From: Minisyncoccota bacterium
GTDB lineage: Bacteria > Patescibacteriota > Microgenomatia > PFEM01 > JAFGMK01
NCBI GenBank assembly: GCA_016927565.1
Contig: JAFGMK010000006.1
Span: 37,942 to 101,941 of the forward strand
Direction: 5' to 3'
Length of the DNA: 64,000 nucleotides
A model generated the notes under the pieces. The model was not told the origin of the DNA, made no database searches, and saw only the letters and a program-made list of their open reading frames with translations. Below are positions 5,157 to 48,338 of this stretch, in pieces (positions within the stretch are counted from its first letter, which is position 1; every line of letters starts with the position of its first letter). A program made the position numbers and the translations under genes.

Positions 5157-5165
5157 TTTATTTTA

Positions 5166-5639: not shown

Positions 5640-5800
5640 CTGTATCCTTCCTGTCTTTCCTATTCTAATCCGGCTCTGATCAAACTGTCAACTCCTGCAA
5701 ATGTCCAGAATGCCTGATGGAAACAACGAGCCCGGACACCTGCAATACTTCCTGCCGCCCTTGAACTTGAAACTGGGTTATGATAACTTAAAACTCAATT

Positions 5801-6127: not shown

Positions 6128-6199
6128 TCCACTTCAGGCAGGCCAAATCTATCTGCCCTAATAGAATTGAGAAGATTTATTTGAGAGGGGGTGAAAAAT

Positions 6200-6352
6200 A
6201 TGACTTCTTTTTACTGTGTTAAGTGCCGCGCTAAAAAACAGGTTGATGACGAAGCAGTTGAACATGTCACGATGAAAAACGGCAAACCGGCAATGAAAAG
6301 CAAATGCCCGGACTGTGGCACCACCATGTTTAAAATTGGCGGCAAAAGCTAA
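6200..6352 (+). CDS. DUF5679-type small zinc-ribbon protein (50 aa)
   Basis: Translation by hand: MTSFYCVKCRAKKQVDDEAVEHVTMKNGKPAMKSKCPDCGTTMFKIGGKS. Two CxxC pairs. GGGGGTG SD sits 7 nt upstream. Followed by a hairpin terminator. Absent from the ORF track because it is under 60 aa. Confidence 0.6.
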   Translation: MTSFYCVKCRAKKQVDDEAVEHVTMKNGKPAMKSKCPDCGTTMFKIGGKS

Positions 6353-6372
6353 TAATTTTTTTGACTTTTAAA

Positions 6373-6400
6373 AACAACCCCGCTATGAGCGGGGTTGTTT
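6373..6400. terminator. bidirectional intrinsic terminator hairpin between convergent genes
   Basis: CAACCCCGCT-ATG-AGCGGGGTTG is a perfect 10-bp stem. It is followed by a T-rich tract on the plus strand and by TTTTT on the minus strand. Confidence 0.45.
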
Positions 6401-6439
6401 GCTGGTAAAAATTTATTATCGGCCAGAGAAAAATATTTT

Positions 6440-9486: not shown

Positions 9487-10178
9487 CTTATCAATCTCTT
9501 TCTCACTGCCAAAGTTAAATATTGCCAGCCATCCTGAAAAGCCCTTAATTTACTTTTCCCCAATCTTTGATCATAGCTAATTTTCATCTGACCCCAACGG
9601 CATTTTAAATAATGAATCGCCTCAATCTTTATCTCATGACTAAAAAAGTATTGATTAGATCTTACTTTTAATTTTTGCCAAAGATTCCTTTGAATCAGGA
9701 ACATTCCTGACAAAGAATCATTAAGGCGGACTTTATAAATCAGGCGGAAATGCCAAGTTAAGAGCAGATTCCCAATCCGCTTAACCAACTGCATCGTCTT
9801 TAAAAACAGATAGTTTGAACCAAAACGGTCAGCCACCAAGAATTCTAATTTTCCTTTCAGGGAATAATCTAGCAACCGGGGAATTTCCTCAACCGGATAA
9901 GTCCCGTCAGCATCACAAACGACCATGATTTCTCCGCGGGAATCATTAAGGCCTCTTTTAATGGCATAACCATAACCCTGATTTTTTTCCCTTAAAACCC
10001 TAGCTCCTAATCGCCGGGCAACTTCGGCAGTTTTATCGGTTGAGTTGTTATCAACGACAACAATCTCGGTTTCAAAACCTCTGGCTCGGATCTCTTTAAC
10101 AGGAACAGCGGGAATAATCTTTTCTACACCCTGTTCCTCATTGTAGGCTGGTAAAATAAGAGAAAAATAATGTTTCAC
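9483..10178 (-). CDS. GT2 family glycosyltransferase, polyprenol-phosphate sugar synthase-like (DPM1/ArnC-like)
   Basis: LILPAYNEE...VVVDNNSTDKT...VCDADG are GT-A DxD-family motifs. 231 aa. Confidence 0.8.
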   Translation of the reverse strand: MKHYFSLILPAYNEEQGVEKIIPAVPVKEIRARGFETEIVVVDNNSTDKTAEVARRLGARVLREKNQGYGYAIKRGLNDSRGEIMVVCDADGTYPVEEIPRLLDYSLKGKLEFLVADRFGSNYLFLKTMQLVKRIGNLLLTWHFRLIYKVRLNDSLSGMFLIQRNLWQKLKVRSNQYFFSHEIKIEAIHYLKCRWGQMKISYDQRLGKSKLRAFQDGWQYLTLAVRKRLIR

Positions 10179-10201
10179 ACCATTATTATATAATACTTGA
10201 A

Positions 10202-11536
10202 ATGCCTAAATCAGTTCTGGCAATTTTTTATCAGGATTACTGGCGAGATGAAGCAATCAGTCTTCTGATTGCTTCCAAGAATCTGAAAGAATTCTTTCCT
10301 TTTGCTGCCAAAGATATTCATCCGCCACTTTACTACCTTTTACTTCACTTTTGGATTAAGTTATTTAGCGAATCCGAGTTTGCAACACGAAGTCTTTCCC
10401 TTATCTGCCATCTTTTATTAGTCTTTTTTTCCTACCAAATATTAAAACACCTTTTAAAAAATCGTTTAATCTCACTCTGGATTACTCCATCAATCTTGCT
10501 AAACCCCTTTTTAATCAAGTATGCCGCTGAAGCCAGAGCCTATTCTCTCTTTGGTTTCTTGGTTATTGCCGCTATCTTTTTTTATCTCAAGAAGCGTTTT
10601 TTTCTAAGTTCGTTTTTTTGGGCTTTGACAATCATCACTCACAATATCAGCCTTCTTTACCTGACATCCTTGGCTATTTTTTGGTTCTGGCAAAACAAGA
10701 AGCGTTTCCGGAAAAAGATCCGTCAGTTTACTCTTATATTTGGCCTCCCTATTTTAGTTTTCCTACTCCGGATCAAGTTTATCTGGTCCCAATCTGCACG
10801 AATTGGGCAGAGGTTTTGGATCAAACCGGCTCCTTTCCCAATTTTTCTAACTGCTTTCAAGGCTTTTTTCCAAGGTCAACTATACAGCCCCAAAACCAGG
10901 ATGTTAAACTATAGATTGGCCCTAGCCCTGATTTTAATCAGCTTTTTTTATTGGATTATTAAAAGAATTTATCCTCAGAAAACCAGGAAAAGCCCTGATC
11001 AGCAAAGTCTAATTTTAGTTTTCCTATCCTTTGCTCCTCTTGTCTTAATTGAAAGTATTTCTCTTATCTGGATCCCTCTTTATCATGAAAAGGTGGTCAT
11101 TCCCAGTCTTCCCCTTTTTATTATCTGGATTGCCTGCGCTCTCTTAAAGTTAGGAAAGATCAGCAGAAGCCTTAAGCTTTCCCTTGTCTTCCTGGCTCTA
11201 ATTTATAATTTTACTTTGGCTTTTGGAGCCAAAGAAACTCTAGCCGCTACCTCCAAACCCCCAATTAGACAGGCTGTTAATCAAATTCTTTTAAAGGCAA
11301 AAGAAACAGACATTATTATCCCTGAGTCGCCGCTCAATTTTCCCGAAACTAAGTATTACCTTAATAAGTCGGCCAAAAAACTACCAGTGCTTGCTTTCTT
11401 TAAAGAACCAGAAGAGTCCTTCCATGTTTATTATATTTGGATCGAGCCAGAGGAAAGAATTTATAAATATCCCCAAGATCAAAATGTCTGGATTATTACC
11501 CTTGACGGGAAATATTTCTTAAGAGGCAATCAGTAA
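10202..11536 (+). CDS. GT39/GT83-like (ArnT/PMT family) membrane glycosyltransferase
   Basis: The first periplasmic loop has WRDEAISLL and KDIHPPLYYLLL, which match the DE...HPPL signature of the ArnT/PMT family. Multi-TM, 444 aa. Confidence 0.6.
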   Translation: MPKSVLAIFYQDYWRDEAISLLIASKNLKEFFPFAAKDIHPPLYYLLLHFWIKLFSESEFATRSLSLICHLLLVFFSYQILKHLLKNRLISLWITPSILLNPFLIKYAAEARAYSLFGFLVIAAIFFYLKKRFFLSSFFWALTIITHNISLLYLTSLAIFWFWQNKKRFRKKIRQFTLIFGLPILVFLLRIKFIWSQSARIGQRFWIKPAPFPIFLTAFKAFFQGQLYSPKTRMLNYRLALALILISFFYWIIKRIYPQKTRKSPDQQSLILVFLSFAPLVLIESISLIWIPLYHEKVVIPSLPLFIIWIACALLKLGKISRSLKLSLVFLALIYNFTLAFGAKETLAATSKPPIRQAVNQILLKAKETDIIIPESPLNFPETKYYLNKSAKKLPVLAFFKEPEESFHVYYIWIEPEERIYKYPQDQNVWIITLDGKYFLRGNQ

Positions 11537-11538
11537 CT

Positions 11539-11868
11539 CTATCCCCCATATCTCTTTAAAAGCCCCGGGTGATCGGCTTGCATTTTTTTGTAAATCGTTA
11601 AGGCCAGAAATAAAGACTCCTGGATGAATTTTTCTGACGCCCCAACTTCTTTAATGTTTTGGGTAATCCTTTTAATATCCGGCTGATTCTCGAGATTTGC
11701 GATGTTTCGGGTCCGGACCAAGACATCGACCGCCTGCCAAGCCAGCTGTCTTAATCTTAGACGCTCCATTTCGGTTTTATCACCGCAATGTTTTTCGATC
11801 AGCTCGTCAATTGGCCTTCTTAGCCTGGCCATAATTTCCTGGTCAGTTTCCTGTTTTAATTGGTTCAT
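11539..11868 (-). CDS. hypothetical protein
   Basis: 109-aa ORF that converges on the GT39-like gene. No motif recognised. Confidence 0.35.
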   Translation of the reverse strand: MNQLKQETDQEIMARLRRPIDELIEKHCGDKTEMERLRLRQLAWQAVDVLVRTRNIANLENQPDIKRITQNIKEVGASEKFIQESLFLALTIYKKMQADHPGLLKRYGG

Positions 11869-11994: not shown

Positions 11995-13524
11995 TTAGTA
12001 AAACTGATCTTTAGGTCTATATTGAAGCGCCTCAGCCAAATGGATAATTTTAATCTTTCCTTCCCCGGCCAAATCAGCAATGGTGCGGGCAATTTTAATG
12101 GTTTTAAAGTACGCCCGGGCAGAGAGATTCATTTGAGAAACAGCCTGACGAAGGAGACTAAGACAGTCTTTATCCAAGAGACAATGTTTTTTAATATCTT
12201 TGTTTTTCATTTCCGAGTTGGCTTTAATCTTTGTCTTTTTAAATCTTTGCCCCTGCTGATCCCGAGCAACCTGAACTCTTTTTTGAACGCTTTTTGAAGA
12301 TTCACTAATGACATTATCGCTGGTTAATTTTTCCACCGAAACAGCGGGCACTTGGACATGAAGGTCAATCCGGTCGAGGATCGGGCCGGAGATCTTTTTT
12401 TGGTAGCGGATAATCTGACCGGGCAAACACTTACATTCTTTTTTATCACTTCCAAGCCAACCGCAGGGGCAGGGATTCGAAGCGGCAATCAAAATAAACT
12501 CAGCCGGATAAGTAACTGTCCCTGCCGCTCGAGAAATGGTTACCCGACCATCCTCCATGGGTTGTCTCAGAGATTCCAAAACCGACCGGGGGAATTCCGG
12601 AAATTCGTCCAGAAACAGAACCCCCCGATGAGCCAAAGAAACCTCTCCCGGCCGGGGCCGGGCACCACCGCCGATTATTCCAACCTGGGAAACCGTGTGA
12701 TGAGGTGAACGAAAAGGACGGTTTTTAACAATTGCACTTTTCTCGGGTAAATTACCGGTAATCGAGTAAATTTTAGTTATCTCTAAAGCCTCTTCTTCGG
12801 TTAAATCAGGCAGAATTCCCGGCAAAGACCGGGCTAACATTGTTTTCCCGGAACCCGGTAAACCTTTTAGAAAAAGGTTGTGGCCTCCAGCGGCTGAGAT
12901 TTCCAGAGCTCTTTTGGCAAACTCTTGGCCCTTGATTTCTGAGAGGTCAAATTCGGCCTGAGGATCAGAAACCAAGGAAGAAAAGTCGGTTTTGGGAAAG
13001 GGCTTAACTTTTTTAAAACCGGAAAAATGACTAAAAAGCTTAACTAGATTAGGAATCGGGTAAACCTTAAGTCCGCCAACAACAGCGGCTTCAGAAGCAT
13101 CAACTTGGGGTAAAAAAACTTTTTTTAGCTTTTTCTTCTTGGCCAAAAGTGCTAAGGGCAAGACGCCGTTAGTGTGTCTTAAGGAGCCGTCGAGAGAGAG
13201 TTCGCCTAAAAAGAAGGTTTCTTTTAAGTTGGCGGCCATCTGGCCAGAGGCAATTAGGATTCCCACTGCCAAGGGTAGGTCATAAGCCGGGCCTTCTTTG
13301 GGCAGATTGGCGGGAGCCAAATTGATTGTAACCCGGTGGTCGGGAAACTTAGCTCCGGAGTTTCTAATAGCCGTAAAAACTCTTTCCTTGGCTTCTTCGA
13401 TGGCTTTGTTGGGCAGACCAACAATTTTAAATGAGGGAAAGCCTTTGGAGGAGACATCAACCTCAACCTCAACCAAAACCCCATCCAAACCAACGGTGGC
13501 GCCGGAAAAAACTTTGGCAAGCAT
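11995..13524 (-). CDS. comM: YifB/ComM family Mg-chelatase-like AAA+ ATPase
   Basis: N-terminal Lon-protease-like domain (MLAKVFSGATVGLDGVLVEVEVD), Walker A GLPGSGKT, and a C-terminal ChlI-like region. 509 aa. Confidence 0.9.
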   Translation of the reverse strand: MLAKVFSGATVGLDGVLVEVEVDVSSKGFPSFKIVGLPNKAIEEAKERVFTAIRNSGAKFPDHRVTINLAPANLPKEGPAYDLPLAVGILIASGQMAANLKETFFLGELSLDGSLRHTNGVLPLALLAKKKKLKKVFLPQVDASEAAVVGGLKVYPIPNLVKLFSHFSGFKKVKPFPKTDFSSLVSDPQAEFDLSEIKGQEFAKRALEISAAGGHNLFLKGLPGSGKTMLARSLPGILPDLTEEEALEITKIYSITGNLPEKSAIVKNRPFRSPHHTVSQVGIIGGGARPRPGEVSLAHRGVLFLDEFPEFPRSVLESLRQPMEDGRVTISRAAGTVTYPAEFILIAASNPCPCGWLGSDKKECKCLPGQIIRYQKKISGPILDRIDLHVQVPAVSVEKLTSDNVISESSKSVQKRVQVARDQQGQRFKKTKIKANSEMKNKDIKKHCLLDKDCLSLLRQAVSQMNLSARAYFKTIKIARTIADLAGEGKIKIIHLAEALQYRPKDQFY

Positions 13525-13545
13525 TAGTTTTTATGATAGCAAAAG
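13465..13545. repeat. copy A (genuine) of the comM 5'-end/promoter repeat
   Basis: AACCTCAACCAAAACCCCATCCAAACCAACGGTGGCGCCGGAAAAAACTTTGGCAAGCAT...TATGATAGCAAAAG covers the comM start codon and first ~20 codons. It recurs at 16175, 21465 and 22448. Confidence 0.85.
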
Positions 13546-13603
13546 GAGCTGTGAAGGGCAAAGCCTCAAGGGTTTAAAGCTAAAACATCTGAACGGGATT
13601 GAT

Positions 13604-14224
13604 TCATTTAAGAACATATCTTTCTATCTGAGAAACTACTAGCTCAGGTGTTAAACGAGTGGTGTCAATTGTCTCTGAATGAAAGTGTTTCCTGCCTATT
13701 TCGACAATTACTGCCTCCATAGCCATAAATCTTTCAGGCGCAGCAACAATCATTAAATCTCTCTCTGTGACTAGATCTGTTCTATCTTTACGCCTTTGCT
13801 CAAGCCGCTGCAGCCTTGCTTCTAGACTAGCAGTTAAAATAAACGAGTGATCAAAGAGGGGGTGTTGCGGCAACATATCAACTAGAACCTCGGGAATTCT
13901 TGGCGTTCCAGATACCGTGTGGAAAGCTAACGATCTTAAAATTATTGTCGAGTCCTGAATTGTATTAACTTCGGGCCATGTAAACATTTCCAAATCTGCC
14001 ATTAAAGCAACCGCATATAGGTTTCCTAAAATTTCTGGACTGAAGGAATCACTTCTACCAATCGAATCGGCTAATAATCGGATTATGTTTTCTTCTTGGC
14101 AAATACTTTTTCTTTGGACTATCCAGGGAGCTGATTGTCGGGAGGCAAAACTATTAGCTATTAAAGATTTACCAGCAAGATCCATTCCATCTAAATGGAT
14201 GAATTTAGCTCTTTCGGAATTCAT
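13604..14224 (-). CDS. thymidylate/dNMP kinase-like P-loop protein
   Basis: FIHLDGMDLAGKS fits GxxxxGKS in the position of the dTMP kinase P-loop. The LID-like and DR.x regions are weakly alignable to Tmk. The assignment is tentative. Confidence 0.45.
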   Translation of the reverse strand: MNSERAKFIHLDGMDLAGKSLIANSFASRQSAPWIVQRKSICQEENIIRLLADSIGRSDSFSPEILGNLYAVALMADLEMFTWPEVNTIQDSTIILRSLAFHTVSGTPRIPEVLVDMLPQHPLFDHSFILTASLEARLQRLEQRRKDRTDLVTERDLMIVAAPERFMAMEAVIVEIGRKHFHSETIDTTRLTPELVVSQIERYVLK

Positions 14225-14609
14225 TTAAGAAAACTTTGGTTTGGGGCACAATTTTTGAGGGCAACTTATTAAGAGAAAACCAGCGAACCTCCACTGTCTT
14301 ATCTAATGGCTTCGGGTTTCCGCTTAGATAATAAGATCTAAATCTTAGGTATATTTTTGCCTTTTTTTGATTAACTTCGGAAGATACTAGAAAATGATTC
14401 TTGATTCGAATATTGGTTTCCTCTAAAACTTCACGCGCCAAGCCGGAAGTTATTGTCTTATCCTTAAGCTCTATTTTCCCTCCGGGAATAACCCAAAAAC
14501 CAGGAAAAGTATCTTCATCTTGGCCACGCTTAACAAGTAAGACCTGGTCATCCTTAAAAATAGCGGTTGAAACATTAATTACAAATTGGGTGGCTTTTTT
14601 GTTTTTCAT
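14205..14609 (-). CDS. NUDIX hydrolase
   Basis: Nudix box GGKIELKDKTITSGLAREVLEETNI matches Gx5Ex7REUxEExGU. Confidence 0.75.
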   Translation of the reverse strand: MKNKKATQFVINVSTAIFKDDQVLLVKRGQDEDTFPGFWVIPGGKIELKDKTITSGLAREVLEETNIRIKNHFLVSSEVNQKKAKIYLRFRSYYLSGNPKPLDKTVEVRWFSLNKLPSKIVPQTKVFLNEFRKS

Positions 14610-14807
14610 CGGTGAAAATTATAATTTATTCAAAGGCAAGGTTACAGTCATTATTTTCAAAATTTCCCTTAAAGTAAACTATTTTATTTAATTAACTAAT
14701 TTATTTGTTTTTAAAACTGTATCATTAGCAATGTCCTAATGCTATTTATTACTTAGGCAATGTGTAAATAAGCTGCCCGTTATGATGCCTCTTGCTATAA
14801 TACATCC

Positions 14808-15368
14808 ATGGGTTATAAACGAATAAACTTCATTCTTGAAAAGAGCTTATATGCCCAGCTCAAGAAGCGCGCCGCAAAACAAGGTGTCCCAATTTCAAAA
14901 ACAGTTACTACTTGGATACAGAATTCCAATATTAACTCCGCTAAGATATCTCAACAGAAAATCACCGGAAGATTAACTACCTACAATTTCTGGGTTGATA
15001 AAGAAACCTATAAATTCCTAAAACAAATTTCGGGTGTAAAAAATGCTCAAATAAGCACCATTTTAAGATCATTAATATTTAACAATCTCAATCAAATAAA
15101 AGGCAGAAATGCCTGCGAAATTATTAAAATTAAAGCCGATAGATTATGGCTTGGCGGCCAGTTAATGCCCTTAAAAAAATATCTTTACTCCAACCTGGAT
15201 AGTCTAGATACTGACTCTCGACTTATACTTGCCCGGGTCTACTTAGAGCTGGGGATGTTTGACGAAGCGAAGCGCATAGGACGAGATGTGGCTAATAAGA
15301 AAAATAATCAGATTAACTCCATTAAGGCAAACACCATCCGGAGCAAATCCGAAGCTCTGCTTTATTAA
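14808..15368 (+). CDS. ribbon-helix-helix (CopG/Arc-like) domain protein, probably two RHH repeats
   Basis: N-terminal KRINFILEKSLYAQLKKRAAKQGVPISKTV has the RHH pattern. A second similar segment sits at residues ~60-95. TATAAT lies 6 nt upstream of the ATG, so the mRNA may be leaderless. Confidence 0.4.
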   Translation: MGYKRINFILEKSLYAQLKKRAAKQGVPISKTVTTWIQNSNINSAKISQQKITGRLTTYNFWVDKETYKFLKQISGVKNAQISTILRSLIFNNLNQIKGRNACEIIKIKADRLWLGGQLMPLKKYLYSNLDSLDTDSRLILARVYLELGMFDEAKRIGRDVANKKNNQINSIKANTIRSKSEALLY

Positions 15369-15409
15369 CTTTGGAAAACAAGAAAATTAGCCCAATGGCA
15401 ATATGATTT

Positions 15410-16039
15410 TTATTTTTTCATGCCTAGGAGCCGGTCCTTATCGATAGCGGCGTCATTTTCCATTAATTCACTCCACCACCACTCATTGGGATTGCTTTCT
15501 TTCATCAGGTAAACAATTTTTTTGGCAGAAGCAGTATTCATAGCCGGAACACGATCGTTAAAGTCAGACTCAAACCATTTTTGGGCCAGTTTATGTCCTT
15601 GCCACATCATTACCCACTCGGTGTAGATCTGGGTCAGGCTGTCGGCGTCTTTGACAATCTTGGCAATTCTGGTTTCTTGTCTTTCATACTCATCAAAAAG
15701 GGATTTGATGTTTTGGCCAAATTTGATACCTTCGACCTGTTTAGTTAAGGCTTTGTTTTCATCGATTTTGACATAATGCTTGGCGATAAAACCGATTTCG
15801 CCGGTCCTGGCTTCAACCAGATCATGGAAAAGAGCCATGGAAACACACTTGAGGCCGTCTTTATGGGATAAACCCTCCATCTGGGATAAAACATAAGCAA
15901 TAACACTACATTGATAGGAATGAGAAGCAACCGTATCAAAGGCATTACCCAGATGATACTGATGTGATCTTGGCATCAGCATTAAAAGACCCGATTGCTG
16001 AATCAAATGGAAAATTTTGGTTATCTCACTCTTAGTCAT
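15410..16039 (-). CDS. HD-domain phosphohydrolase, YfbR-like 5'-deoxynucleotidase family
   Basis: HSYQCSVIAYVL...ALFHDLVEARTGE is an H...HD metal-binding signature with YfbR-like spacing. Confidence 0.65.
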   Translation of the reverse strand: MTKSEITKIFHLIQQSGLLMLMPRSHQYHLGNAFDTVASHSYQCSVIAYVLSQMEGLSHKDGLKCVSMALFHDLVEARTGEIGFIAKHYVKIDENKALTKQVEGIKFGQNIKSLFDEYERQETRIAKIVKDADSLTQIYTEWVMMWQGHKLAQKWFESDFNDRVPAMNTASAKKIVYLMKESNPNEWWWSELMENDAAIDKDRLLGMKK

Positions 16040-16089
16040 AAGGTGAAATATACTATATCACAAAAATAACTCCTGATATTCCCTTTCTA

Positions 16090-16254
16090 ATTTTCTCCAA
16101 ACTTTGCTGTTTTGGTTCTTTATCTTGGAAATCTTTTTTTTAATTTCAAAGTGGCAGGTTAAATTGTGATCATAACCTCAACCAAAACCCCATCCAAACC
16201 AACAGTGGCGCCGGAAAAAACCTTTGAAAGCATTTGAGGTTATGATAGCAAAAT
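16090..16254. repeat. copy B of the comM 5'-end repeat (extended ~165 bp unit)
   Basis: Core 16175-16254 is near-identical to comM codons 1-20 plus ~25 bp upstream. An extra ~85 bp left arm is shared with copy C. It has an internal inverted repeat CATAACCTCAA...TTGAGGTTATG. Confidence 0.8.
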
Positions 16255-16306
16255 AGAGGGAGCAGAGCAAAGACTTGGAGGTGTAAATTTGACTTTTGAT
16301 TTTAGA

Positions 16307-16561
16307 CTAATAAATGATTGGGTTTCCTTCTGGGTCGTAAGTTAGAAATGGCCATTCAGTGCCAAGATGGCTTAATTCTTCCACTTCTCGGACAGGGTAT
16401 TGCCTATCACCCACCGTGATCCGGCCCTCTTCTAGACAACCTCCCTCGGCTAGGCTGGTAGCCTGACCAGCACTAAGAACAACCCCTTGAGGAGACCAGC
16501 CTCTTCGCAGGTCTTCTTGGAGCTTTTCACGAACTTGAGCACATGTTAATCGTTCGCACAT
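16307..16561 (-). CDS. hypothetical protein, G/E/R-rich composition atypical for the window
   Basis: 84-aa ORF inside the repeat-bounded segment 2. No motif recognised. Confidence 0.3.
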   Translation of the reverse strand: MCERLTCAQVREKLQEDLRRGWSPQGVVLSAGQATSLAEGGCLEEGRITVGDRQYPVREVEELSHLGTEWPFLTYDPEGNPIIY

Positions 16562-16647
16562 GATTAATTTATTAAGTAAATTAGTTGAAATAACAGTAAT
16601 ACTATTTTAAACTAGTTTTACTATAACTAAATAATTTTTCAGCTGAA

Positions 16648-17187
16648 ATGGAGTATAACACAGAAATAGCCTTTAGCAAAGACTTATGGGGTGAAATCGT
16701 TGAGGTTGAGTTTTGCCCCCAAGAAACACTTCCTTCTGAGGAGGAACTTCCTTTAACTGCAGTTTCTTGCATTGCTGTTACCGATGATAATAGAAGGGTT
16801 GTTTTGGCTAAAGTGCCCCGAGGTTGTGATCTGCCGGGTGGCCATATTGAAAGCGGCGAGAAGCCGGAGGACGCTCTAGCCCGTGAGCTAGAGGAAGAGA
16901 CCGGAGCTCGGTTTCAGGATAAACCGCACCTTATTGGGATTCGGAGAATGACTAAGAAGGCTGAGACTGTTCGAGTTCAACAATATCCGTTGGTAAGCGG
17001 GATTGCGGTATACATAGGAAGAGTAGTGTTGGATAAAAGCTTTGTTCCTCAGAAAGAATCATCGGAGAGAATTTTGGTCGATGTTCAAGAGATTGATCAG
17101 ATTCATCACCACTGGAGCCGGCAAGAGCAGGAGATTTTTGCTTATGCTAAAGAACGCTACCCTGATTACTTTCCCGACAAAATTTAA
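16648..17187 (+). CDS. NUDIX hydrolase
   Basis: Nudix box GGHIESGEKPEDALARELEEETGA. 179 aa. Converges on the 1368-aa gene with a 4-nt overlap. Confidence 0.75.
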   Translation: MEYNTEIAFSKDLWGEIVEVEFCPQETLPSEEELPLTAVSCIAVTDDNRRVVLAKVPRGCDLPGGHIESGEKPEDALARELEEETGARFQDKPHLIGIRRMTKKAETVRVQQYPLVSGIAVYIGRVVLDKSFVPQKESSERILVDVQEIDQIHHHWSRQEQEIFAYAKERYPDYFPDKI

Positions 17188-20100
17188 AGGCTGAATTTTT
17201 CTTTAATTATTGCAGCTGCTTTTTTGGCTCCTTCTAGACTTATTCGGGGTGATATCTCCGACATACGAGCAGCGTAGGTCGCTTGATCAGTAAGAGCTTG
17301 CTGAATCCCAGCATCAAGCCGGTCATTGTCTAGTCTGGAAAGAGGCAGGTTTTGGCCTAAGCCATGCTGTTCAACCAAAGCAGCATTATATTGCTGATCA
17401 GCGTTGGTAGTAATGGTAATAATCCCCCCCCTGCCCCTTTTCATAAAGGGATAAAGAGTACCGCTTCCACCCTGGCAGAGCAAGACATCGGCGTGGCTGG
17501 CGAGTTCAGGAAGATTGGCAAATTTTACGGGAACAAAGTTTTCCGGCAAATCAGCTGGTAATTCGGCATCGGCAGTAGTAACCATTATCATTGCCTCCGG
17601 TCTTTTTTGGGCAACTGCAAATAAGGCTTGATAAAGTTTGGGCTCTTTAATGCTCCCAAAACTACCAAAAATGATTTTTTTACCTTCTAATTTAGCCTGA
17701 GCAAGCTTAGCAACCGCTTCTTTGGTTGCCCCTTCGTCAACATACTGATTAATAATGGTTTCTGGCTGAATTGAACCGACGTAAGCCACCTCATTACCAT
17801 TGACCAGCTCTCGAAGCCGGGGGTCAAGATTAAAATCAGGGCCGACTCCCTGATTGACGAAAGCTTCATTATCGGCAATTATGGTCAGATCGGCAGCTTC
17901 CATATGTTGAAACCAGCTTGGATTATCGGTAGGCGGCTCGCCGATGTATTGTCTATGCGCTTCTTGATAAACCTGACGCAACTTAGGATCAAGCGGACGG
18001 TAGTACTTATCAGCCAATCTTTCTGCCTCAGGACCAAGTTTATGAATAAACGCCTCGGAGGTAAAACCAACATTGCTAAGATTGGTGATTGACACCGTGG
18101 GAACACCAGCCATTTTAGCAGCCATTAAAAGAGGGACATTATGATCTGAAAGAACAAATGGTGGCGGATTTTCTTCCAAGCGCTGGGCAATACGGACAAC
18201 ATTCCCGGCCATTTCTTTAACACTAAATTCTCCTTTGATTAAATGACCAGGATGGTAAAAATAATCATCAGATCTCTCAACTGTTACAGGCTTGCCTGGA
18301 GTTTCAAATCCCCGGCCAAGGTCAAAGACTTGCCGGCCACTTTCAGACCCACACATATTAGTTGGCACTCCGGCTCGGGCAAGTTCTAAAGCGACCTCAA
18401 GAGGTCGACCAGTATGAGCTGATACTCCAGGCAGATAACCCACCTCAACTGGCCTTGCCTGGCTTTTTTGTTCGCTAGCGATTGGGACTTCCGGATCTTC
18501 TTTTTCTTTTTTAGCCTGACTAAGCCTTTTCTCCTCGGCTCCCAACTCGTAGGCTGCATCAACTAAACTTGGCCAGACTTGATAGGTCCTAAGATAGCGC
18601 CGAACCCCCTTGCGGACTGACCGAATCTCTTTTGGCAAGGGCTGATTTTCGAGATCTTTCTCAACAGCTTCAATTGCTCCCTCAGGAAAGGCGTGAAGAA
18701 AACTTTCTAACTCATCAATAACCTGATCAGGCTCCGCAGAATCTATTTGCCTGGCAAATTCTACTTGTGCATCCAACAAACCTCTGAGTCTTTTTATTTC
18801 TTCAAGTTTTGCATGATTGGCCTCAAATGTTCGGATCGAAGCTTGGAGAGACTTGTCATCAGCAGGGGCAATTCCTAAAGCCTGCTTGGCTTCATTTTGA
18901 AGGCTAGGGCTACCATCAATAGCTTTAGAAATTTTGAATTGTTCCCTGGCGTAATTGTTGCTAAAAGCACCAACCATTTCGGCACCAAAAGCATCACCAC
19001 CACCCTGACGGGCAGCTCGCTGGTGCATTAGAGGCCTTTCTCGGCGGATAACCCGATTTGGATCAGCTGCGGTAGCTGCTTGAGCTCGAATAGCGCCGCT
19101 AAGATTATAGTCAAATATGCCCCCTAATGGAGTCGGGATTCCCTTAATCGCCTCACCTGAAAAAGTAATATTACCAAGATCAAGCTTACTGGCTTCTTGC
19201 CAATCTAAACCTTCTTTAAAATGGCGTTCCTCAGTCCACAGGGCGGCAATTGGCTGGCGGCGGACAGCCGCTTCAAGTATTTGAGGGAGCAATCGGTAGG
19301 CTTCGCTGGTTGACACCTGACGGAAGGCACCAGTTTCAGGATCAAAAATATTATAAGTACTAAAAGCGCCGCTATTTCTTTCAGTCATAATCTGAGTGGT
19401 TAGTTCCAGAGTATCCTTTACTAAAGAAATGGGGTTGCCGGTATGGCCAGTGTATCGGCCAATAGTGACTTGAGTTTCTGGATCTTCAAACCAGGCCGCT
19501 CTTTCAGCCAAGATATCGTGCTGATCTGTTCTTATAGTTCCTTCTTCGGTTCTAGTAAGAGTCCGATAGCGCTGATCGTCTTCATTAATGGTGATCGTTG
19601 TTTCCTTCAAGGGAACTCCTCGTTTACCAGCCTCATACGCCGCTGCTAAATAGCCAAAATTCTGAGTGCCGGCAATGCCTCCAAGCTCAGCTAAGGGATC
19701 AGCAAATTCAAAACTTTCTAAGTCCTCTCGAAGTGGCGCCTGAAGTCGGTCTTTTAATAAAGCCCGACTAAGCCAAAATTGATATCTTCTCTGTTTTTCG
19801 GTAAGGTCAGGATCTGCTTTTAGTTCTTGGGCAACTTTTTGGGCAAGTCTTTGAGCGAACCCAGTATTTTCCCTAACTCGGTAATAGCCGACTTGATATT
19901 TTTTAGCAACTTTGGCGATCTGTCTGGCAGCTTCATCATCCCAAGAATCATCAATAATAAAAACACCCACCTCACCTTGGTAAGCACTTTTTTGTCTAGA
20001 CTCAGCAAAATCTTCCAAAAATCGGTCAATTAATTCCGGGTTTTGTAAAGACTTGATACCAACCATTTGGAGCTTAGTCTCCCGAGGCTCTTCCTCCATT

Positions 20101-21290
20101 CGTTCTAAGTAACCTTCAATAAATGCTTTTACCCTGTCTGGTTCATGCATTTGAGGATCTGGCAGGGGCGGACTTTCGTACTTTTTCTTAAGAGCTTCGA
20201 CCTGATCTGGTCTGGCCGCCCACTTTTTTTTCCGAGGCTCGGTCCAATATTGGTCATACAAATACCATTCCTCAGCTCGTCTTTGCCAGGGAACTACTTC
20301 TTTGAGAAGGCGAATGCCCCTGGTTTCTTCACCAGCGACAAAGCCAACAAATTTATCAACGGCTGCTTTTACACCACCCGTTTTAATAGAATCATAATCA
20401 TCAGTCGCATCCTCAATCCCCCTAATGGCCACCTCATTTAGCAAAACAAGGCTTTGGGCTGAAAGACCCTTAATGGCAGTTTTTTCAGTAGGGTTTTTTC
20501 TGGTGATTACCGGGATATATTGACCTGAATCTTGATCTAAAACAATATCAGTGGCTGAGTTATAAACACCACTATATAAAGCTTCAACTAACTGGAGGCG
20601 GTTTTTGTAGACATTGAGGTGAAAATCGGGGTCACTACCTTCTTCAAGAATTCCGTGAGTATTTCTGGTTCCATTTGGCCACAGATCAACAAACTCCCCC
20701 TCTATCTCTGCTTCGGGATTAACATCATTTATCAGGCCAGTTAATCCCCGGTAGCTTAGGCCAACAGCGCTTTGACTATCCGCCAAAATTACTTTTTTAG
20801 CTTTGGCGACTCCCATTTGTCTTAAATAGCCTCGATAACGGTCATAAAAATCCGGGCCATGAGCAGTTCCCCTAACCAAGGGATTAAATTGGCCGTTGTA
20901 ATGGAGATATCTTGTTCTGCCGGGATCAATTTCTTGATATTCAGCTACTTTTTCCCTGAGTTTTTGGGCAGCAATATGAATCGGCAAACCATCTCTGGCC
21001 AAGGTCAAAGCAAGACTATCTGGTTCGTTTTTGAGCTTGGTTAATACTTTATCGGCTAAGAGGATATATACCGGAGCAACAACTTCCCTTGTCTGGGAGT
21101 AAACCTCTTTTGCCAAGGCGCGGAAGCGCTCCTCTTGTTCTGGTGGAACCTTCCTTTCTTTGACCAGGTGATCGAGATACTGACCAAGCCTATCCGAATC
21201 CTGCTCGTGTTCCTGGCCTGTTTCTTGGTCGGCAATTGGTTTGCTTGGCTGATCCTCGATTGGCTTAACCCCGTTAGCACCTTCTCCCAT
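17184..21290 (-). CDS. 1368-aa multidomain protein: unknown N-terminal ~880 aa with a possible GT-A-like segment, plus a C-terminal GT1-family (MGT/UGT-like, GT-B fold) glycosyltransferase domain
   Basis: The C-terminal ~480 aa has a GT1 N-lobe motif (YLPGVSAHTGRPLEVALELARAGVP) and a C-lobe nucleotide-sugar motif (HADVLLCQGGSGTLYPFMKRGRGGIITITTNADQQYNAALVEQHGLG). A mid-protein segment (VGVFIIDDSWDDEAARQIAKVAKKYQVGYYRVRENTGFA) weakly resembles a GT2 N-terminal region. The protein is rich in A/E/R/Q/G/P, unlike the neighbouring proteins. Confidence 0.65.
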   Translation of the reverse strand: MGEGANGVKPIEDQPSKPIADQETGQEHEQDSDRLGQYLDHLVKERKVPPEQEERFRALAKEVYSQTREVVAPVYILLADKVLTKLKNEPDSLALTLARDGLPIHIAAQKLREKVAEYQEIDPGRTRYLHYNGQFNPLVRGTAHGPDFYDRYRGYLRQMGVAKAKKVILADSQSAVGLSYRGLTGLINDVNPEAEIEGEFVDLWPNGTRNTHGILEEGSDPDFHLNVYKNRLQLVEALYSGVYNSATDIVLDQDSGQYIPVITRKNPTEKTAIKGLSAQSLVLLNEVAIRGIEDATDDYDSIKTGGVKAAVDKFVGFVAGEETRGIRLLKEVVPWQRRAEEWYLYDQYWTEPRKKKWAARPDQVEALKKKYESPPLPDPQMHEPDRVKAFIEGYLERMEEEPRETKLQMVGIKSLQNPELIDRFLEDFAESRQKSAYQGEVGVFIIDDSWDDEAARQIAKVAKKYQVGYYRVRENTGFAQRLAQKVAQELKADPDLTEKQRRYQFWLSRALLKDRLQAPLREDLESFEFADPLAELGGIAGTQNFGYLAAAYEAGKRGVPLKETTITINEDDQRYRTLTRTEEGTIRTDQHDILAERAAWFEDPETQVTIGRYTGHTGNPISLVKDTLELTTQIMTERNSGAFSTYNIFDPETGAFRQVSTSEAYRLLPQILEAAVRRQPIAALWTEERHFKEGLDWQEASKLDLGNITFSGEAIKGIPTPLGGIFDYNLSGAIRAQAATAADPNRVIRRERPLMHQRAARQGGGDAFGAEMVGAFSNNYAREQFKISKAIDGSPSLQNEAKQALGIAPADDKSLQASIRTFEANHAKLEEIKRLRGLLDAQVEFARQIDSAEPDQVIDELESFLHAFPEGAIEAVEKDLENQPLPKEIRSVRKGVRRYLRTYQVWPSLVDAAYELGAEEKRLSQAKKEKEDPEVPIASEQKSQARPVEVGYLPGVSAHTGRPLEVALELARAGVPTNMCGSESGRQVFDLGRGFETPGKPVTVERSDDYFYHPGHLIKGEFSVKEMAGNVVRIAQRLEENPPPFVLSDHNVPLLMAAKMAGVPTVSITNLSNVGFTSEAFIHKLGPEAERLADKYYRPLDPKLRQVYQEAHRQYIGEPPTDNPSWFQHMEAADLTIIADNEAFVNQGVGPDFNLDPRLRELVNGNEVAYVGSIQPETIINQYVDEGATKEAVAKLAQAKLEGKKIIFGSFGSIKEPKLYQALFAVAQKRPEAMIMVTTADAELPADLPENFVPVKFANLPELASHADVLLCQGGSGTLYPFMKRGRGGIITITTNADQQYNAALVEQHGLGQNLPLSRLDNDRLDAGIQQALTDQATYAARMSEISPRISLEGAKKAAAIIKEKFSL

Positions 21291-21364
21291 TATATAATGC
21301 TAGCTCATTAGCTGAAAAATTAAAATCCCTACTTTCTCGAACCCTATCATAAACACAAGCCCCG

Positions 21365-21544
21365 ATATTCCTTTTCAGGTTTTTTCCAAATCTCACTCTT
21401 TTGATTCTTAATCTTAGGAATCCTCTTTTAAACCTCAAAGTGGCAGGTTAAATTGTGATTCATAACCTCAACCAAAACCCCATCCAAACCAACGGTGGCG
21501 CCGGAAAAAACCTTTGAAAGCATTTGAGGTTATGATAGCAAAAG
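21365..21544. repeat. copy C of the comM 5'-end repeat (extended unit, near-identical to copy B)
   Basis: Core is 21465-21544. Left arm 21378-21464 matches 16090-16174. Confidence 0.8.
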
Positions 21545-21671
21545 AATGCTAAGGACACAAAGATCCTAAGACGTGAACTCAAATCAATCTAAGGGCGGAG
21601 AATCGCTAAAGGAAAGGAGTTGTGTTATTATGACGGGGTAAAGACTATTTTAAAACATTTGATTTTTTAAT

Positions 21672-22418
21672 ATGAACTCTAAACCCCAAAAGGAGGTTTC
21701 TAAGTCAGGAATACCAATTTTGCGCCATCAGCAAGCAGCTAAACCGCCTAAAAAAACTTCCTATCCTACCGAAGAATACCTCAAAGTTTTGGATAAACAC
21801 ATTAAAAAATATATTGGGGAGGCAAAAACTGTTTTTCATGAATTGATTTCGGAGTATGTCCACTTGGATGTTTACTTTATTGAGGCTAGTAAAAAAAGAA
21901 ATTTTCATACCCTAGTGACCGCAGGAATGAGCCTTTTGCCAATGAATGTTCCTCCCGGATTAGAAAGTCATCGCTTTGCCGAACTTTTAATTTGTCTACC
22001 GGCTAGCTGGCCTTTGAGTAAAGAAGCTTTTAAAAAAGAAGCTAATTACTGGCCGGTAAGACAACTTAAGATGTTGGCACGCCTGCCCCATGTTTACCGA
22101 ACCTTTCTTTACATTGGTCATACTGTGCCCAATGGTAACCCTCCCAAGCCTCTTGCTAATAATACCCGCTTTGATTGTCTGCTTTTACTCCCACCAATTC
22201 TTTTCCCCAAAGAATTCAGCTCTCTTAAAATCAACAAAGATAAAACAGTTCATTTTTACGCTCTAATCCCTCTCTACCCTGAAGAAACTGCCTTTAAACT
22301 AGACCAGGGAACGTCTAAGTTATTCCGGAAGTTGGACCAGGCCCGAGTTACCGAGTTGGTAGATATTAACAGACCCAGTTTGATTAGCAAAAAAAATAAC
22401 AAAGGGCAGGCAGCATAA
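21672..22418 (+). CDS. SUFU-like (suppressor-of-fused family) domain protein
   Basis: FHTLVTAGMSLLPMNVPPG, WPVRQLKMLARLPHVY, GHTVPNGNPPKPLANNTRFDCLLLLPP and FYALIPLYPEE match the conserved blocks of bacterial SUFU-family proteins. These are recalled from memory and were not searched. Confidence 0.5.
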   Translation: MNSKPQKEVSKSGIPILRHQQAAKPPKKTSYPTEEYLKVLDKHIKKYIGEAKTVFHELISEYVHLDVYFIEASKKRNFHTLVTAGMSLLPMNVPPGLESHRFAELLICLPASWPLSKEAFKKEANYWPVRQLKMLARLPHVYRTFLYIGHTVPNGNPPKPLANNTRFDCLLLLPPILFPKEFSSLKINKDKTVHFYALIPLYPEETAFKLDQGTSKLFRKLDQARVTELVDINRPSLISKKNNKGQAA

Positions 22419-22447
22419 ACTTAAAGAAAACCTTTTAAAGAGACAGC

Positions 22448-22525
22448 AACCTCAACCAAAACCCCATCCAAGCCAACGTGGCGTCGGAAAAAACTTTAGC
22501 CAGCATTTGAAATCATGACAGCAAA
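22448..22525. repeat. copy D of the comM 5'-end repeat (most diverged, 1-nt deletion)
   Basis: AACCTCAACCAAAACCCCATCCAAGCCAACGTGGCGTCGGAAAAAACTTTAGCCAGCAT...CATGACAGCAAAAA. Confidence 0.75.
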
Positions 22526-22596
22526 AAAAGAGAGGGAGAGTAAAATTCCTGAGATGTAAAGCTAAACTACCCTAAGGGTGTAAACTGATAAAAATA

Positions 22597-22636
22597 ACGA
22601 TCCCGGATCGTCTGCAGATTTCGATCCGGGATCGGG
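22597..22636. repeat. dispersed palindromic repeat, copy 1 (CGATCCCGGATCG-TCTGCAGATTT-CGATCCGGGATCG)
   Basis: Perfect 13-bp inverted arms around a palindromic PstI-like loop. The flanks (GATAAAGATAACG on the left, GCTCCGGA..GTCAAAGAA on the right) are shared with the other copies, so the full unit is ~75 bp. Confidence 0.8.
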
Positions 22637-22895
22637 GAAGCTCCGGATAGTCAAAGAACATGAGCAGTTACGTACTGGGTTGGCACCTGTCTCCGGAACG
22701 GCCAAGCCGGAATCGAACCTATCAATGGAAAATGTCAGTCAATTTTTCCTGGCTTTTGTTGCCGTGAATCGCCGCTGCCCTAAAACCACTTCTGACTAGG
22801 TTTATGGCAAGCTTATTTACCCCCCTCAATAGTGTATGGAAAATCTCGATCTTCTTCTTTTACCAACATGGAAAAAAATTTACGAAAACGGCCAG

Positions 22896-23336
22896 TTAAA
22901 TTATCCTTTTTTTAATCCTATGGCTAAAAAAATAGCCGGTCACCCCAACCGCCCCAGTTAAAAAACCCAAAGGGCAGACAATAGTTGAGGTTAGAAAAAA
23001 GGTAACATGAAGGGCTTCGGCGAAAAAATGAAGGATTTGGATTTTTTCAGTGATTATGGCTAAGGCATAAAGCAGATTGTGGAAAACGACGCCGGGGAAA
23101 AAAGCCGCCGCCGAAACCCCACTAAGAAGCAGGAATTTTTTTAGGCGATTTTTAAACTTTCTTCTTCTAATGACTATGATTAAGCCAAAACCCAAAAAGG
23201 AAAAAACCGCCAACGGCAGAAGAAACAAAAAAGTGCCTCGGAATAATTCTCTGATTGGTTCAAGAAAAAATTGCGCCACCCCAAAAATAAAACTCAAAAG
23301 CAACCACCAGAACAACCGCGGTATTTTTTGCTTCAT
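22896..23336 (-). CDS. small integral membrane protein (4 predicted TM helices)
   Basis: 146-aa hydrophobic ORF, 11 nt downstream of the 220-aa secreted-protein gene. Probably co-transcribed with it. Confidence 0.4.
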   Translation of the reverse strand: MKQKIPRLFWWLLLSFIFGVAQFFLEPIRELFRGTFLFLLPLAVFSFLGFGLIIVIRRRKFKNRLKKFLLLSGVSAAAFFPGVVFHNLLYALAIITEKIQILHFFAEALHVTFFLTSTIVCPLGFLTGAVGVTGYFFSHRIKKRII

Positions 23337-23347
23337 CTTAAAAAAGC

Positions 23348-24010
23348 TTAGCGAAACTGACCAAAGCCCGGGCCGACCGGCGTACGATATTGCAGGCCGT
23401 GACTACCGGCACAAGAATCATTCTCAACCTTTTGAATAACAGCAAATTCATCCCAGATTACCGGCCCAAGCTCCCGACGGTTTTTCTCATACCACATTCC
23501 ATTCTCTTTATAAGCGCCACTAGGCGCTGCTGCAATTTTGACAAAATAATTCCATTGGCAAGTCTCGCCGTCCTGTTCATACTCACCGGACTGATGGTTG
23601 GTCAACCAGGCACCGGATCCAACATAGCCGGCAAAACCATAATGACGGTCAAGCAAGCCATCACCATCACAATCTCTGTTTGAAAGCCAGGCGTCATTCC
23701 ACTTCATAGCCAGCCTGACGTCCTTATAAGGTTGACACCAGGCCGCATTCCGGTAGGAATCACAATAAAAACCATTGAATGAGCGGGCTTGGTAGTTATA
23801 ACCCCACCCGTCATAACCGGAAGTAATCGGATAACCGTCACTAGTCAAAAGATCCCCTTGTTGAATAGTTTTACAGGCAGTAAATTTTCCTAAAACCCTG
23901 GAAGGAACAGCCCGAGGCACAAGCGGCAGCAGGGCTACATTAAAAGCCAATACAATTCCGCCGACTACTAAAGCCACCGGCAAAACCGTATGTAAAATTT
24001 TATTTTCCAT
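23348..24010 (-). CDS. secreted or membrane-anchored Gly/Trp/Tyr/Asp/Cys-rich protein
   Basis: N-terminal TM/signal peptide (VLPVALVVGGIVLAFNVALLPLV). The mature part has about 8 Cys and DCDGDGLLD. Its GC-rich codon usage is atypical for the window. Confidence 0.45.
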   Translation of the reverse strand: MENKILHTVLPVALVVGGIVLAFNVALLPLVPRAVPSRVLGKFTACKTIQQGDLLTSDGYPITSGYDGWGYNYQARSFNGFYCDSYRNAAWCQPYKDVRLAMKWNDAWLSNRDCDGDGLLDRHYGFAGYVGSGAWLTNHQSGEYEQDGETCQWNYFVKIAAAPSGAYKENGMWYEKNRRELGPVIWDEFAVIQKVENDSCAGSHGLQYRTPVGPGFGQFR

Positions 24011-27081: not shown

Positions 27082-28095
27082 TTATTTCTGATTCAAAGCC
27101 CGACGGATAATTCCCACCAGACTGTTAAAGTGGCATTGGTCATAATCGCTTCGGTAAAAACCGCCTTTAAACATGGGGGCTAATTTTTGCAAACTGGAAA
27201 GAACTAAACCAATCTTTAGGGCCCGATCAAACAAATCATCCTGAATCCGTTTTGATTTTTTAACTTCTTTAATTAATTTTTTTCCCAGCTTGATATTTTC
27301 CCAAGCCCGGGTATAAAAACTAGCCACATCCAAGCCCCAATCAAGAAGGGGCAAACAAGACCAATAGGCGCTTTCCCAATCAAGCAAAACCGCTCTTTTG
27401 GTCCCAAAGAAGACATTATTGGGAGCCAGGTCGCCGTGAATTAAAACGCCCGGGGCTTGTTTGGCTTTGAAGAATGATTCTTTAAACTTTTTAAAAAAAA
27501 GAATGACAGTTTGGCCATCAGATTTCAGCCAATTCAAGTCGGAAACTTCTAGAGCCGGATAAAGAGTTTCAAGGTGCTCCCGAATCCGACTTTCGACTTC
27601 GTTGATAATGACTGATTTTTGCTTATTAATCAAAAGATAGGGTTTTAGCTTAATGGGAAGGTCTGACTGTTTAATTTGCCAAAGTTGACGAAGAGCATGG
27701 CCGAGAGCAATCATCTTTTTGGGTTTAAGCGAGGAGATGTTTTCTTCCCGACAAATTAGTCCCTGATTATCTCTAAAATACTGACCAACGTACCAAAAAA
27801 GGTTTTTTATTTGGCCGGAGTCAAAGATCCGCCGGGCCAGATTACTCTCCCGGGAAAGCCATTTTTGGATTAATAATTCTTTTTGGAACCTTCGCAATAG
27901 GCCGGGCTTATCACTAAAAGCGCCTTTGAAAAATAATTTTTTACCCTCGGAATTGATAAGTGGAAAATAAACAAAGCGGGGGGTCTCTTTAGTCAAACAC
28001 CGGCGAAGCTCAATTCGATCGGGCTGCCAGCTTCTTCTTTCAGTTAAAGAAAGAATCACTTTTAATCTTTGTTGATACTCGGTTTCAGATAACAT
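27082..28095 (-). CDS. phosphotransferase family protein (APH/choline-kinase-like kinase fold)
   Basis: The catalytic loop region VLIHGDLAPNNVFF...LLDWESAYW matches the HGDxxxxN...D motif of PF01636-like kinases. Confidence 0.55.
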   Translation of the reverse strand: MLSETEYQQRLKVILSLTERRSWQPDRIELRRCLTKETPRFVYFPLINSEGKKLFFKGAFSDKPGLLRRFQKELLIQKWLSRESNLARRIFDSGQIKNLFWYVGQYFRDNQGLICREENISSLKPKKMIALGHALRQLWQIKQSDLPIKLKPYLLINKQKSVIINEVESRIREHLETLYPALEVSDLNWLKSDGQTVILFFKKFKESFFKAKQAPGVLIHGDLAPNNVFFGTKRAVLLDWESAYWSCLPLLDWGLDVASFYTRAWENIKLGKKLIKEVKKSKRIQDDLFDRALKIGLVLSSLQKLAPMFKGGFYRSDYDQCHFNSLVGIIRRALNQK

Positions 28096-28114
28096 TTTTT
28101 TAAGACAAAATCTC

Positions 28115-47839: not shown

Positions 47840-47859
47840 TTTAAAAAAGATGATAACAA

Positions 47860-48234: not shown

Positions 48235-48301
48235 TAAATTTAATATAACATTCTTTAGAAAGCCGATCAAGGTAAATTACTCGCACTCTTTAACAAAGAT
48301 A

Positions 48302-48338
48302 ACGATTCCGGATCGTCTGCAGATTTTGATCCGGGATC
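48302..48338. repeat. dispersed palindromic repeat, copy 4
   Basis: CGATTCCGGATCGTCTGCAGATTTTGATCCGGGATCA, with AAAGATAACG on the left and GCCTGGAATTGTCAAAGAA on the right. Confidence 0.75.

Follow-up and report, generated by a model that had tools for sequence, protein, structure and literature searches.

Why does a 5.2-kb segment of unusual composition lie between direct repeats in the genome of an uncultured bacterium of the candidate phyla radiation (CPR), and did the repeats have a part in its arrival? The segment lies in a 64-kb stretch of DNA (the window, from contig JAFGMK010000006.1) of a metagenome-assembled genome (MAG) of Candidatus Pacebacteria, and the analysis was made within this window. 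A preliminary description had presented it as a segment with near-identical 165-bp direct repeats at both ends and carrying genes for a small protein, a NUDIX hydrolase and a giant glycosyltransferase. The segment is a horizontally acquired gene cassette. Since the repeat is present in four copies (A to D), the segment is not isolated but is the middle one (seg2) of three tandem cassettes occupying 13579–22446, between seg1 (13579–16173), which holds nucleotide-metabolism genes, and seg3 (21578–22446), which holds one SUFU-domain gene.

The comM gene and the four repeat copies

The target gene of the array is the competence gene comM (yifB), on the minus strand at 11995–13524, which according to Pfam encodes a Mg-chelatase-like AAA+ protein of 509 aa. 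The gene is intact despite the array. All three domains are present in its product (Mg_chelatase, 315 bits; ChlI, 155 bits; Mg_chelatase_C, 104 bits) and residues 1–506 align over their full length to 80 relatives at no more than 65% identity.

The repeat core was found four times in direct orientation, at 13468, 16177, 21467 and 22451, against none expected in shuffled sequences, and it is the reverse complement of comM codons 1–20 plus the −35/−10 promoter. Copy A (13465–13578, minus strand; repeat and pattern search) comprises the live promoter and first 20 codons of comM. Its promoter match is sigma-70-like, TTGCCC-17 nt-TATCAT on the minus strand at 13561–13533, and the ATG and first 20 codons begin about 8 nt downstream. 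Copies B (16174–16287) and C (21464–21577) likewise hold a comM promoter and 20 codons and, with copy D (22447–22560), were found on the minus strand by the repeat search. These orphan copies translate to MLSKVFSGATVGLDGVLVEV..., with copy B coding for MLSKVFSGATVGLDGVLVEVMITI and copy C for MLSKVFSGATVGLDGVLVEVMNHNLTCHFEV, each followed by a stop codon. Copy D is frameshifted after codon 10 and is still comM-like to about codon 30, spanning 22425–22560 with this extension. B, C and D are orphan duplicates of the comM 5′ end, and they resemble attachment sites.

The copies are related to different degrees. B and C align at 84% over 228 bp (16056–16283 and 21345–21575), within which a core of about 110 bp (16145–16254 and 21435–21543) is near-identical with one mismatch and one indel. 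Thus the direct repeats of the preliminary description do exist, but the near-identity extends over about 110 bp and not 165 bp, and there are four copies and not two. Copy A has 83–85% identity to B or C over about 114 nt, including a 48-nt run that is identical in A and C and differs at one position in B. Copy D, the most distant from comM, is the most decayed with 78–84% identity to A, B and C. All four copies carry private substitutions and are set in flanks of their own.

B and C depart from comM at the same codon and then run into a common arm, S, of about 115 nt. The repeat family search placed arm S1 (16056–16170, minus strand) directly upstream of the HD gene of seg1 and arm S2 (21345–21459, minus strand) directly upstream of the giant gene of seg2. 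The two arms are 78% identical; their 24-nt core occurs in the window at 16147 and 21436 only, and arm S is found nowhere else in the window. A role of arm S as a structured RNA was rejected as its z scores against shuffles were −0.5 and +0.4. Both B and C contain an inverted repeat. In copy B (16164–16181 and 16234–16251) it extends over 18 nt at 89% with 13 nt perfect, a length reached by 2 of 1000 dinucleotide shuffles, and in copy C (21460–21471 and 21524–21535) it is 12 nt and perfect, a length reached by 5 of 1000. The arms of this inverted repeat bracket a core of 52 nt; the start codon marks the end of one arm, and the junction between comM and S lies within the other. The same test applied to copies A and D gave nothing comparable.

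Composition and gene content of the middle cassette

The overall GC content of seg2 is 0.448 compared with about 0.42 for the window. GC at first codon positions (GC1) in its three genes is 0.60–0.67, above all 57 of the 57 background genes (z 2.4–3.7), the 0.667 of the 84-aa open reading frame (ORF) being the window maximum. The dinucleotide distance delta* is 111, compared with 50 ± 21 for all 5.2-kb windows, and is equalled by no non-overlapping window; the tetranucleotide distance is likewise the highest value in the window. In the seg2 proteins Ala, Asp, Glu, Pro and Gln are present at 1.4–1.6 times and Phe, Ile, Lys and Leu at 0.5–0.7 times the usual level. The giant gene also uses G in synonymous codons at 0.110 per codon against a size-matched null of 0.045 ± 0.013, a value reached by 0.05% of 2000 resamples. 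The atypical composition noted by eye in the preliminary description is thus borne out by computation as regards Ala, Glu, Pro and Gln enrichment and Lys, Ile and Phe depletion. The contrast to the A/T-ending codons of the surrounding genes is not, as GC at third codon positions in seg2 is 0.36–0.41, equal to or below the background of 0.426. The signal is therefore carried chiefly by the amino acids encoded and by first codon positions.

These steps in composition fall exactly at B and C. The genes of seg1 have a GC content of 0.365–0.414, below that of seg2, and seg3 is of ordinary composition. Steps at B and C together with a seg1 unlike seg2 indicate separate donors, and the donor of seg2 differs in composition. 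That the segment was acquired as a repeat-bounded unit, as first proposed, is its best reading because its foreign signature is shared by the three genes and bounded by B and C, because one of its genes is an ORFan and because the giant has one full-length homologue.

Another compositional outlier lies at 5000–11600, where GC is 0.36–0.38 and the tetranucleotide distance is nearly that of seg2. With genes for GT2 and PMT_2-type glycosyltransferases, this region just downstream of comM is probably an island of variable surface-glycan genes.

The three genes of seg2 are as originally described, in coordinates and in convergence. The ORF list gives an 84-aa ORFan, the last gene of seg2, on the minus strand at 16307–16561; the NUDIX hydrolase of 179 aa (Pfam NUDIX) is on the plus strand at 16648–17187; and the giant ORF of 1368 aa, again from the ORF list, is on the minus strand at 17184–21290. 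The NUDIX and giant genes converge with a 4-nt overlap.

The glycosyltransferase content reported for the giant was confirmed, and what had been missed is that the protein is a fusion of modules found elsewhere as separate neighbouring genes: a CriT-like module, a GT-A module and a GT1/GT-B module. Module 1 (residues 36–384; 20139–21185, minus strand) has the fold of a CriT-like glycosyl (ribofuranosyl-5-phosphate) transferase dependent on phosphoribosyl pyrophosphate (PRPP), with a PRTase-like core and helical bundles. Module 2 (residues 385–945; 18456–20138, minus strand) is a glycosyltransferase of GT-A fold, Rossmann-like and with a DxD motif, followed by a C-terminal helical region; its conserved motifs are D447-x-S449 and E570-D571-D572. 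AlphaFold models of modules 1 and 2 are confident (predicted local distance difference test 88.5, predicted template modelling score 0.89). Module 3 (residues ~950–1368; 17187–18443, minus strand; Pfam) is a GT1-family GT-B glycosyltransferase, with 32.3 bits to Glyco_tran_28_C (cut-off 22), 30.5 bits to EryCIII-like_C, slightly under the cut-off of 31.7, an NCBIfam match to MGT subfamily E at 8e-12 and PDB matches to UGT, MGT and CalG2.

Two results weigh against module 1 as a CriT enzyme. Its profile match to 7shg, a characterised ribofuranosyltransferase, is marginal (E 0.021), and Pfam found no HAD phosphatase in the giant or in seg2. The place of module 1 in the CriT family thus has a structural basis and is not proven. 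The residues R99-D100, D171 and E236 are invariant in the alignment of module 1 and are candidate catalytic residues. The catalytic acidic residues of Bcs3, the capsule polymerase of Haemophilus influenzae type b, are D680, E818 and E874. Compared with Bcs3 and with the PRPP-dependent ribofuranosyltransferase of T. composti (CrpP/CriT type), to which sequence similarity is marginal, the giant has no HAD phosphatase, CroT or SH3b domain and has GT-A and GT1 modules as partners instead.

Relatives of the giant are few. Among 5.8 billion proteins there was just one full-length homologue (P0002, 56% identity), and its locus, L002, is unrelated in gene context and has neither a NUDIX gene nor a homologue of the 84-aa ORF nor a comM repeat nearby. 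A profile search of 1.84 billion representatives gave only 60 relatives, in which the N-terminal 950 residues split into two independent modules. Module 1 occurs alone (P0010) or C-terminal in proteins of about 880 aa behind a HAD phosphatase domain (P0020, P0022), and module 2 is found either by itself or joined to a GT1 domain (P0004–P0006); none of the viral contigs carried module 2. In locus L084 (2741–9098) a gene for module 1 (P0010, 365 aa) is divergent from a gene for module 2 plus GT1 (P0005, 1028 aa), and as these split genes are neighbours the giant is a fusion of a conserved pair. The pair adjoins a gene for a 708-aa GT2 protein amid ribosomal-protein and tRNA-synthetase genes, a context which indicates that the split enzyme set is chromosomal core there and not cargo. 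Relative P0004 is encoded after a phosphoenolpyruvate-utilising kinase-like gene and a carbamoyltransferase gene, neighbours compatible with tailoring of a glycan or metabolite. The giant is a cytoplasmic enzyme that would most likely transfer three glycosyl units one after another, including one ribofuranose-5-phosphate, to a glycan or small-molecule acceptor; we infer these donors and this acceptor.

Origin of the array

We think it probable, though by no means certain, that the tandem array arose at the comM 5′ end by site-specific, gene-restoring insertions and that seg2 came from a foreign donor with its three-module glycosyltransferase as cargo. Both the order of events and the site-specific mechanism are what we infer. 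Each incoming element would have carried a mimic of the comM promoter and first ~20 codons. Recombination within the coding core of about 60 nt would have set the element between the old 5′ end and the gene body, so that the old 5′ end became an orphan and the gene body, still intact, came to be driven by the promoter and 5′ end of the element. Repeated insertions would give, in the orientation of comM, the order D (attL-like, decayed), seg3, C (attP-like), seg2, B (attP-like), seg1, A (attR-like, live) and comM, with attL and attR as the outer sites and attP-like sequences at the internal seg3/seg2 and seg2/seg1 junctions. Internal junctions of this kind would explain the near-identity of B and C, their shared arm S and the presence of the inverted repeat in these two copies only. 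The advanced decay of D, read either as attL-like or as a decayed ancestral 5′ end, would follow from its being the copy farthest from the gene in an accretion array. A recombinase may have acted in trans or been lost, as with integrase-less cis-mobilisable islands, or may never have existed.

Integration of the gene-restoring kind has been documented for dusA islands, which target the 5′ end of that gene (PMC4482086), and for SXT/R391, which targets that of prfC (PMC2791158). The present array resembles both in that the insertion would hit a conserved housekeeping gene within its opening codons, that the element would supply a new 5′ coding end (here with the promoter) and leave the gene intact, and that the old 5′ end would remain beyond the element as a direct repeat. 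Unlike those systems, the target here is comM, the elements are of 1–5 kb with no integrase, excisionase or transfer genes, and the repeat is about 110 bp and not a 21-bp semi-conserved site; moreover there are three elements in tandem and the host is a Patescibacteria (CPR) MAG. Among the tandem ssrA islands of Dehalococcoides are some that lack integration modules and have been interpreted as cis-mobilisable elements (PMC3146451). In these islands, and in accretion of the ICESt1 type, successive islands are separated by several direct repeats of the target end and the newest island adjoins the live gene. The ssrA islands differ in lying at the 3′ end of an RNA gene, in their 20-bp repeats and in the CcrB-type serine recombinase present in some units, none being seen here. 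In the window the four att-like repeats, all of the same orientation, delimit unrelated cargo, with internal junctions that are attP-like, and the array is rated as a set of gene-restoring, tandemly accreted genomic islands with new features, namely the integrase-less stack, the comM site and the CPR host. In Acinetobacter comM is likewise a chromosomal hotspot, for islands of the AbaR/Tn6022 type. Those islands are Tn7-like transposons which interrupt comM with a 5-bp target duplication, unlike the present case where comM is preserved and the duplication consists of its promoter and 5′ end. A search of a literature library for comM or yifB as an integrase target found nothing specific.

The generality of the arrangement was examined in 80 comM loci of other species (GTDB genomes), mostly from Patescibacteria and Chloroflexota, whose comM proteins are 50–65% identical to that of the window. 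DNA- and protein-level searches found an orphan comM 5′ end in one of the 80. This locus (L062), in an Anaerolineae MAG (JAXGNH010000034, 7714–10180), has a 210-nt duplicate of the comM promoter and about 58 codons, 96.7% identical, 2.3 kb upstream of the gene. Between the copies is one ORF for a Cys-rich, secreted-looking protein of 538 aa with no Pfam match, and there is no integrase. The architecture is that of the window in another phylum, and hence the orphan comM 5′ end recurs but is rare. An exact look-up of the comM of the window gave no record.

A number of results weigh against site-specific accretion. The Pfam scan found no member of an integrase or recombinase family among the 8 proteins of the array or the 30 further proteins of the window. 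Copy D has no arm S and reaches further into comM, so that seg3 misfits the common junction, and B and C are effectively a single observation of the inverted repeat. Searches of IMG/VR and JGI metagenomes with the repeat core and the S core gave no match, and thus no free element, phage attP or second host; nor was a relative found with an empty site or a different cassette. As the 80 relatives have no conserved gene order around comM, the ancestral empty site cannot be reconstructed. Finally, the array rests on one MAG assembly. The sole read-level object is a Logan unitig covering 16224–21489, which stops inside both repeats; this repeat-bounded unitig is also the only other contig with the giant gene and is silent on circles.

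The main rival to insertion by a recombinase is capture without one, in which circular or multimeric DNA bearing a comM 5′ fragment would enter by a RecA-dependent single crossover of the Campbell type, perhaps after natural transformation, and the duplicated homology would then let cassettes excise and reinsert. This would produce the topology observed. The 48-nt run shared by A and C, with its one mismatch in B, could support homologous recombination, and the window encodes a type IV pilus cluster and competence genes. The absence of an integrase among the 38 window proteins is as this explanation would have it, and so is L062 with its single-gene insert, its duplication of at least 210 nt and no integrase. 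What tells against it is that A is only 83–85% identical to B and C over about 114 nt, and that B and C, which break off at precisely one and the same codon, have in common both an arm foreign to comM and the inverted repeat, which looks like a defined site and not like arbitrary homology. Recombinase-free capture is unlikely, but has a real chance of being correct.

An assembly artefact would be another source of such an array if strain-variable cassettes or free circles sharing a comM-like repeat had been concatenated by the assembler. Repeats of 110–230 bp can confuse short-read assemblers, the source is a MAG, and both ends of the independent Logan unitig fall within repeats. After B and C, however, the sequence runs into S and not into the comM body, and so these two copies are not alternative alleles of the live junction; their continuation into S means that the orphan structures are real even if their order is not. 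The unique flanks and private substitutions of each copy argue in the same direction. An artefact is therefore judged improbable.

The preliminary description implied that the small protein, the NUDIX protein and the giant work together as a single system, perhaps in defence or in the modification of nucleic acids. The three genes are indeed tightly packed and of common composition, the NUDIX proteins of both seg1 and seg2 match the PADLOC candidate PDC-S07, and the adjoining seg1 is concerned with nucleotide metabolism. The NUDIX protein of seg2 has 56.6 bits in Pfam (cut-off 21.1) and an intact Nudix box, GHIESGEKPEDALARELEEETGA, that follows the pattern GX5EX7REUXEEXGU. Its nearest homologues have 40–43% identity and are found in other contexts, one of them (L086) in a house-cleaning enzyme cluster beside type IV secretion genes. 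The notion that the two NUDIX genes are recent paralogues was rejected, the proteins having 35% identity over 88 residues. The 84-aa ORFan found only itself among 5.8 billion proteins and had no Pfam, NCBIfam, PADLOC or PHROG match, and the giant had no PADLOC or PHROG match of note. Neighbours are unrelated at the locus of the full-length homologue (L002), at those of the split relatives (L083 and L084) and at that of the NUDIX homologue (L086), and on this account the NUDIX protein was rejected as a conserved partner of the giant. A defence system was also rejected: in PADLOC the NUDIX genes match PDC-S07, a candidate made up of one gene, and all else was weak noise. The trio was found at no other locus. 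As the three families do not co-occur and the ORFan has no homologue, the trio is a cargo set and not a recurring system, with the NUDIX protein and the ORFan as passengers; a single functional system is very unlikely.

The least probable explanation, and a very remote one, is an integron-like array without an integrase (CALIN-like), its cassettes inserted at the GTT in comM codon 20 and the 88-nt units of B and C acting as folded attC-like sites, for although the unit is inside the 57–141 nt range of attC sites, its 18-nt arms hold TCATAAC and GTTATGA with complementary AAC/GTT boxes and the breakpoint between B/C and comM falls at GTTGAGGTT, there is no intI in the window, the supposed attC shares homology with the promoter and 5′ end of comM, the cassettes are multi-gene, of mixed orientation and with promoter-like sites of their own, the arms misfit RYYYAAC/GTTRRRY and Rfam found nothing.

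The flanking cassettes, other features and significance

Four genes were assigned in seg1 from Pfam and PHROGs. On the minus strand are those for a thymidylate-kinase-like protein (13604–14224, 206 aa), for the NUDIX protein (14205–14609, 134 aa; Pfam, and PADLOC candidate defence gene PDC-S07 with E 1e-14) and for an HD-domain protein resembling a deoxynucleoside triphosphatase or 5′-deoxynucleotidase (15410–16039, 209 aa), and on the plus strand is that for an Arc-like RHH/TPR protein (14808–15368, 186 aa). The cargo at 13604–16039, phage-like in appearance, amounts to a compact set of nucleotide-pool genes together with an Arc-like regulator. The one gene of seg3, on the plus strand at 21672–22418, encodes a SUFU-domain protein of 248 aa (Pfam SUFU, 158 bits). 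Members of the SUFU family are reported to confer immunity in polymorphic toxin systems; the gene here has no toxin gene beside it.

Beyond the array, a family of 69-nt repeats is present at 22590–22658, 40128–40196 and 48295–48363, with 70–83% identity and a conserved GC-rich hairpin of 12–13 bp (AACGATCCCGGATCG...CGATCCGGGATCG). It has the look of a repetitive extragenic palindromic (REP) sequence or of a miniature inverted-repeat transposable element, and one copy sits 30 nt past repeat D. The sole transposase-like gene noted is a Y1/IS200-like ORF at 44828–45505, similar to REP-associated tyrosine transposases. In the 340-nt non-coding stretch past repeat D there is a T-loop-like GGTTCGATTCC on the minus strand at about 22710–22720. 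It was rejected as part of a tRNA, having no ARAGORN or Rfam call and unpaired flanks, and is probably due to chance or a very decayed remnant. The ARAGORN and Rfam scans found nothing in the window as a whole, nor in 13300–23400 at a permissive threshold. Tandem pairs of paralogues lie in 27082–29122 and 47462–48270. One pair consists of APH-family phosphotransferases (337 and 335 aa) and the other has putative response-regulator-like N-termini and shares a 234-nt repeat at 72% identity.

Gene gain in the small genomes of the CPR is little understood, and a tiny integrase-less cassette array would be a compact route of acquisition. A bolder proposal, which we put forward as conjecture and think rather unlikely, is that in some uncultured bacteria (Patescibacteria here and Anaerolineae once) the comM 5′ end may be a gene-capture platform, where integrase-less cassettes with a promoter-plus-leader mimic of about 110 bp and an inverted repeat would be stacked and exchanged through a recombinase supplied in trans or through homologous recombination linked to competence, in the manner of an integron but with a gene-restoring, promoter-donating site. 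Such arrays would be easy to find via orphan comM starts. As for the cargo, the giant extends the recently discovered PRPP-dependent CriT-type fold to a new three-module architecture, of which two full-length sequences are known, and it suggests that Patescibacteria have ribofuranose-containing glycans or glycosylated metabolites.

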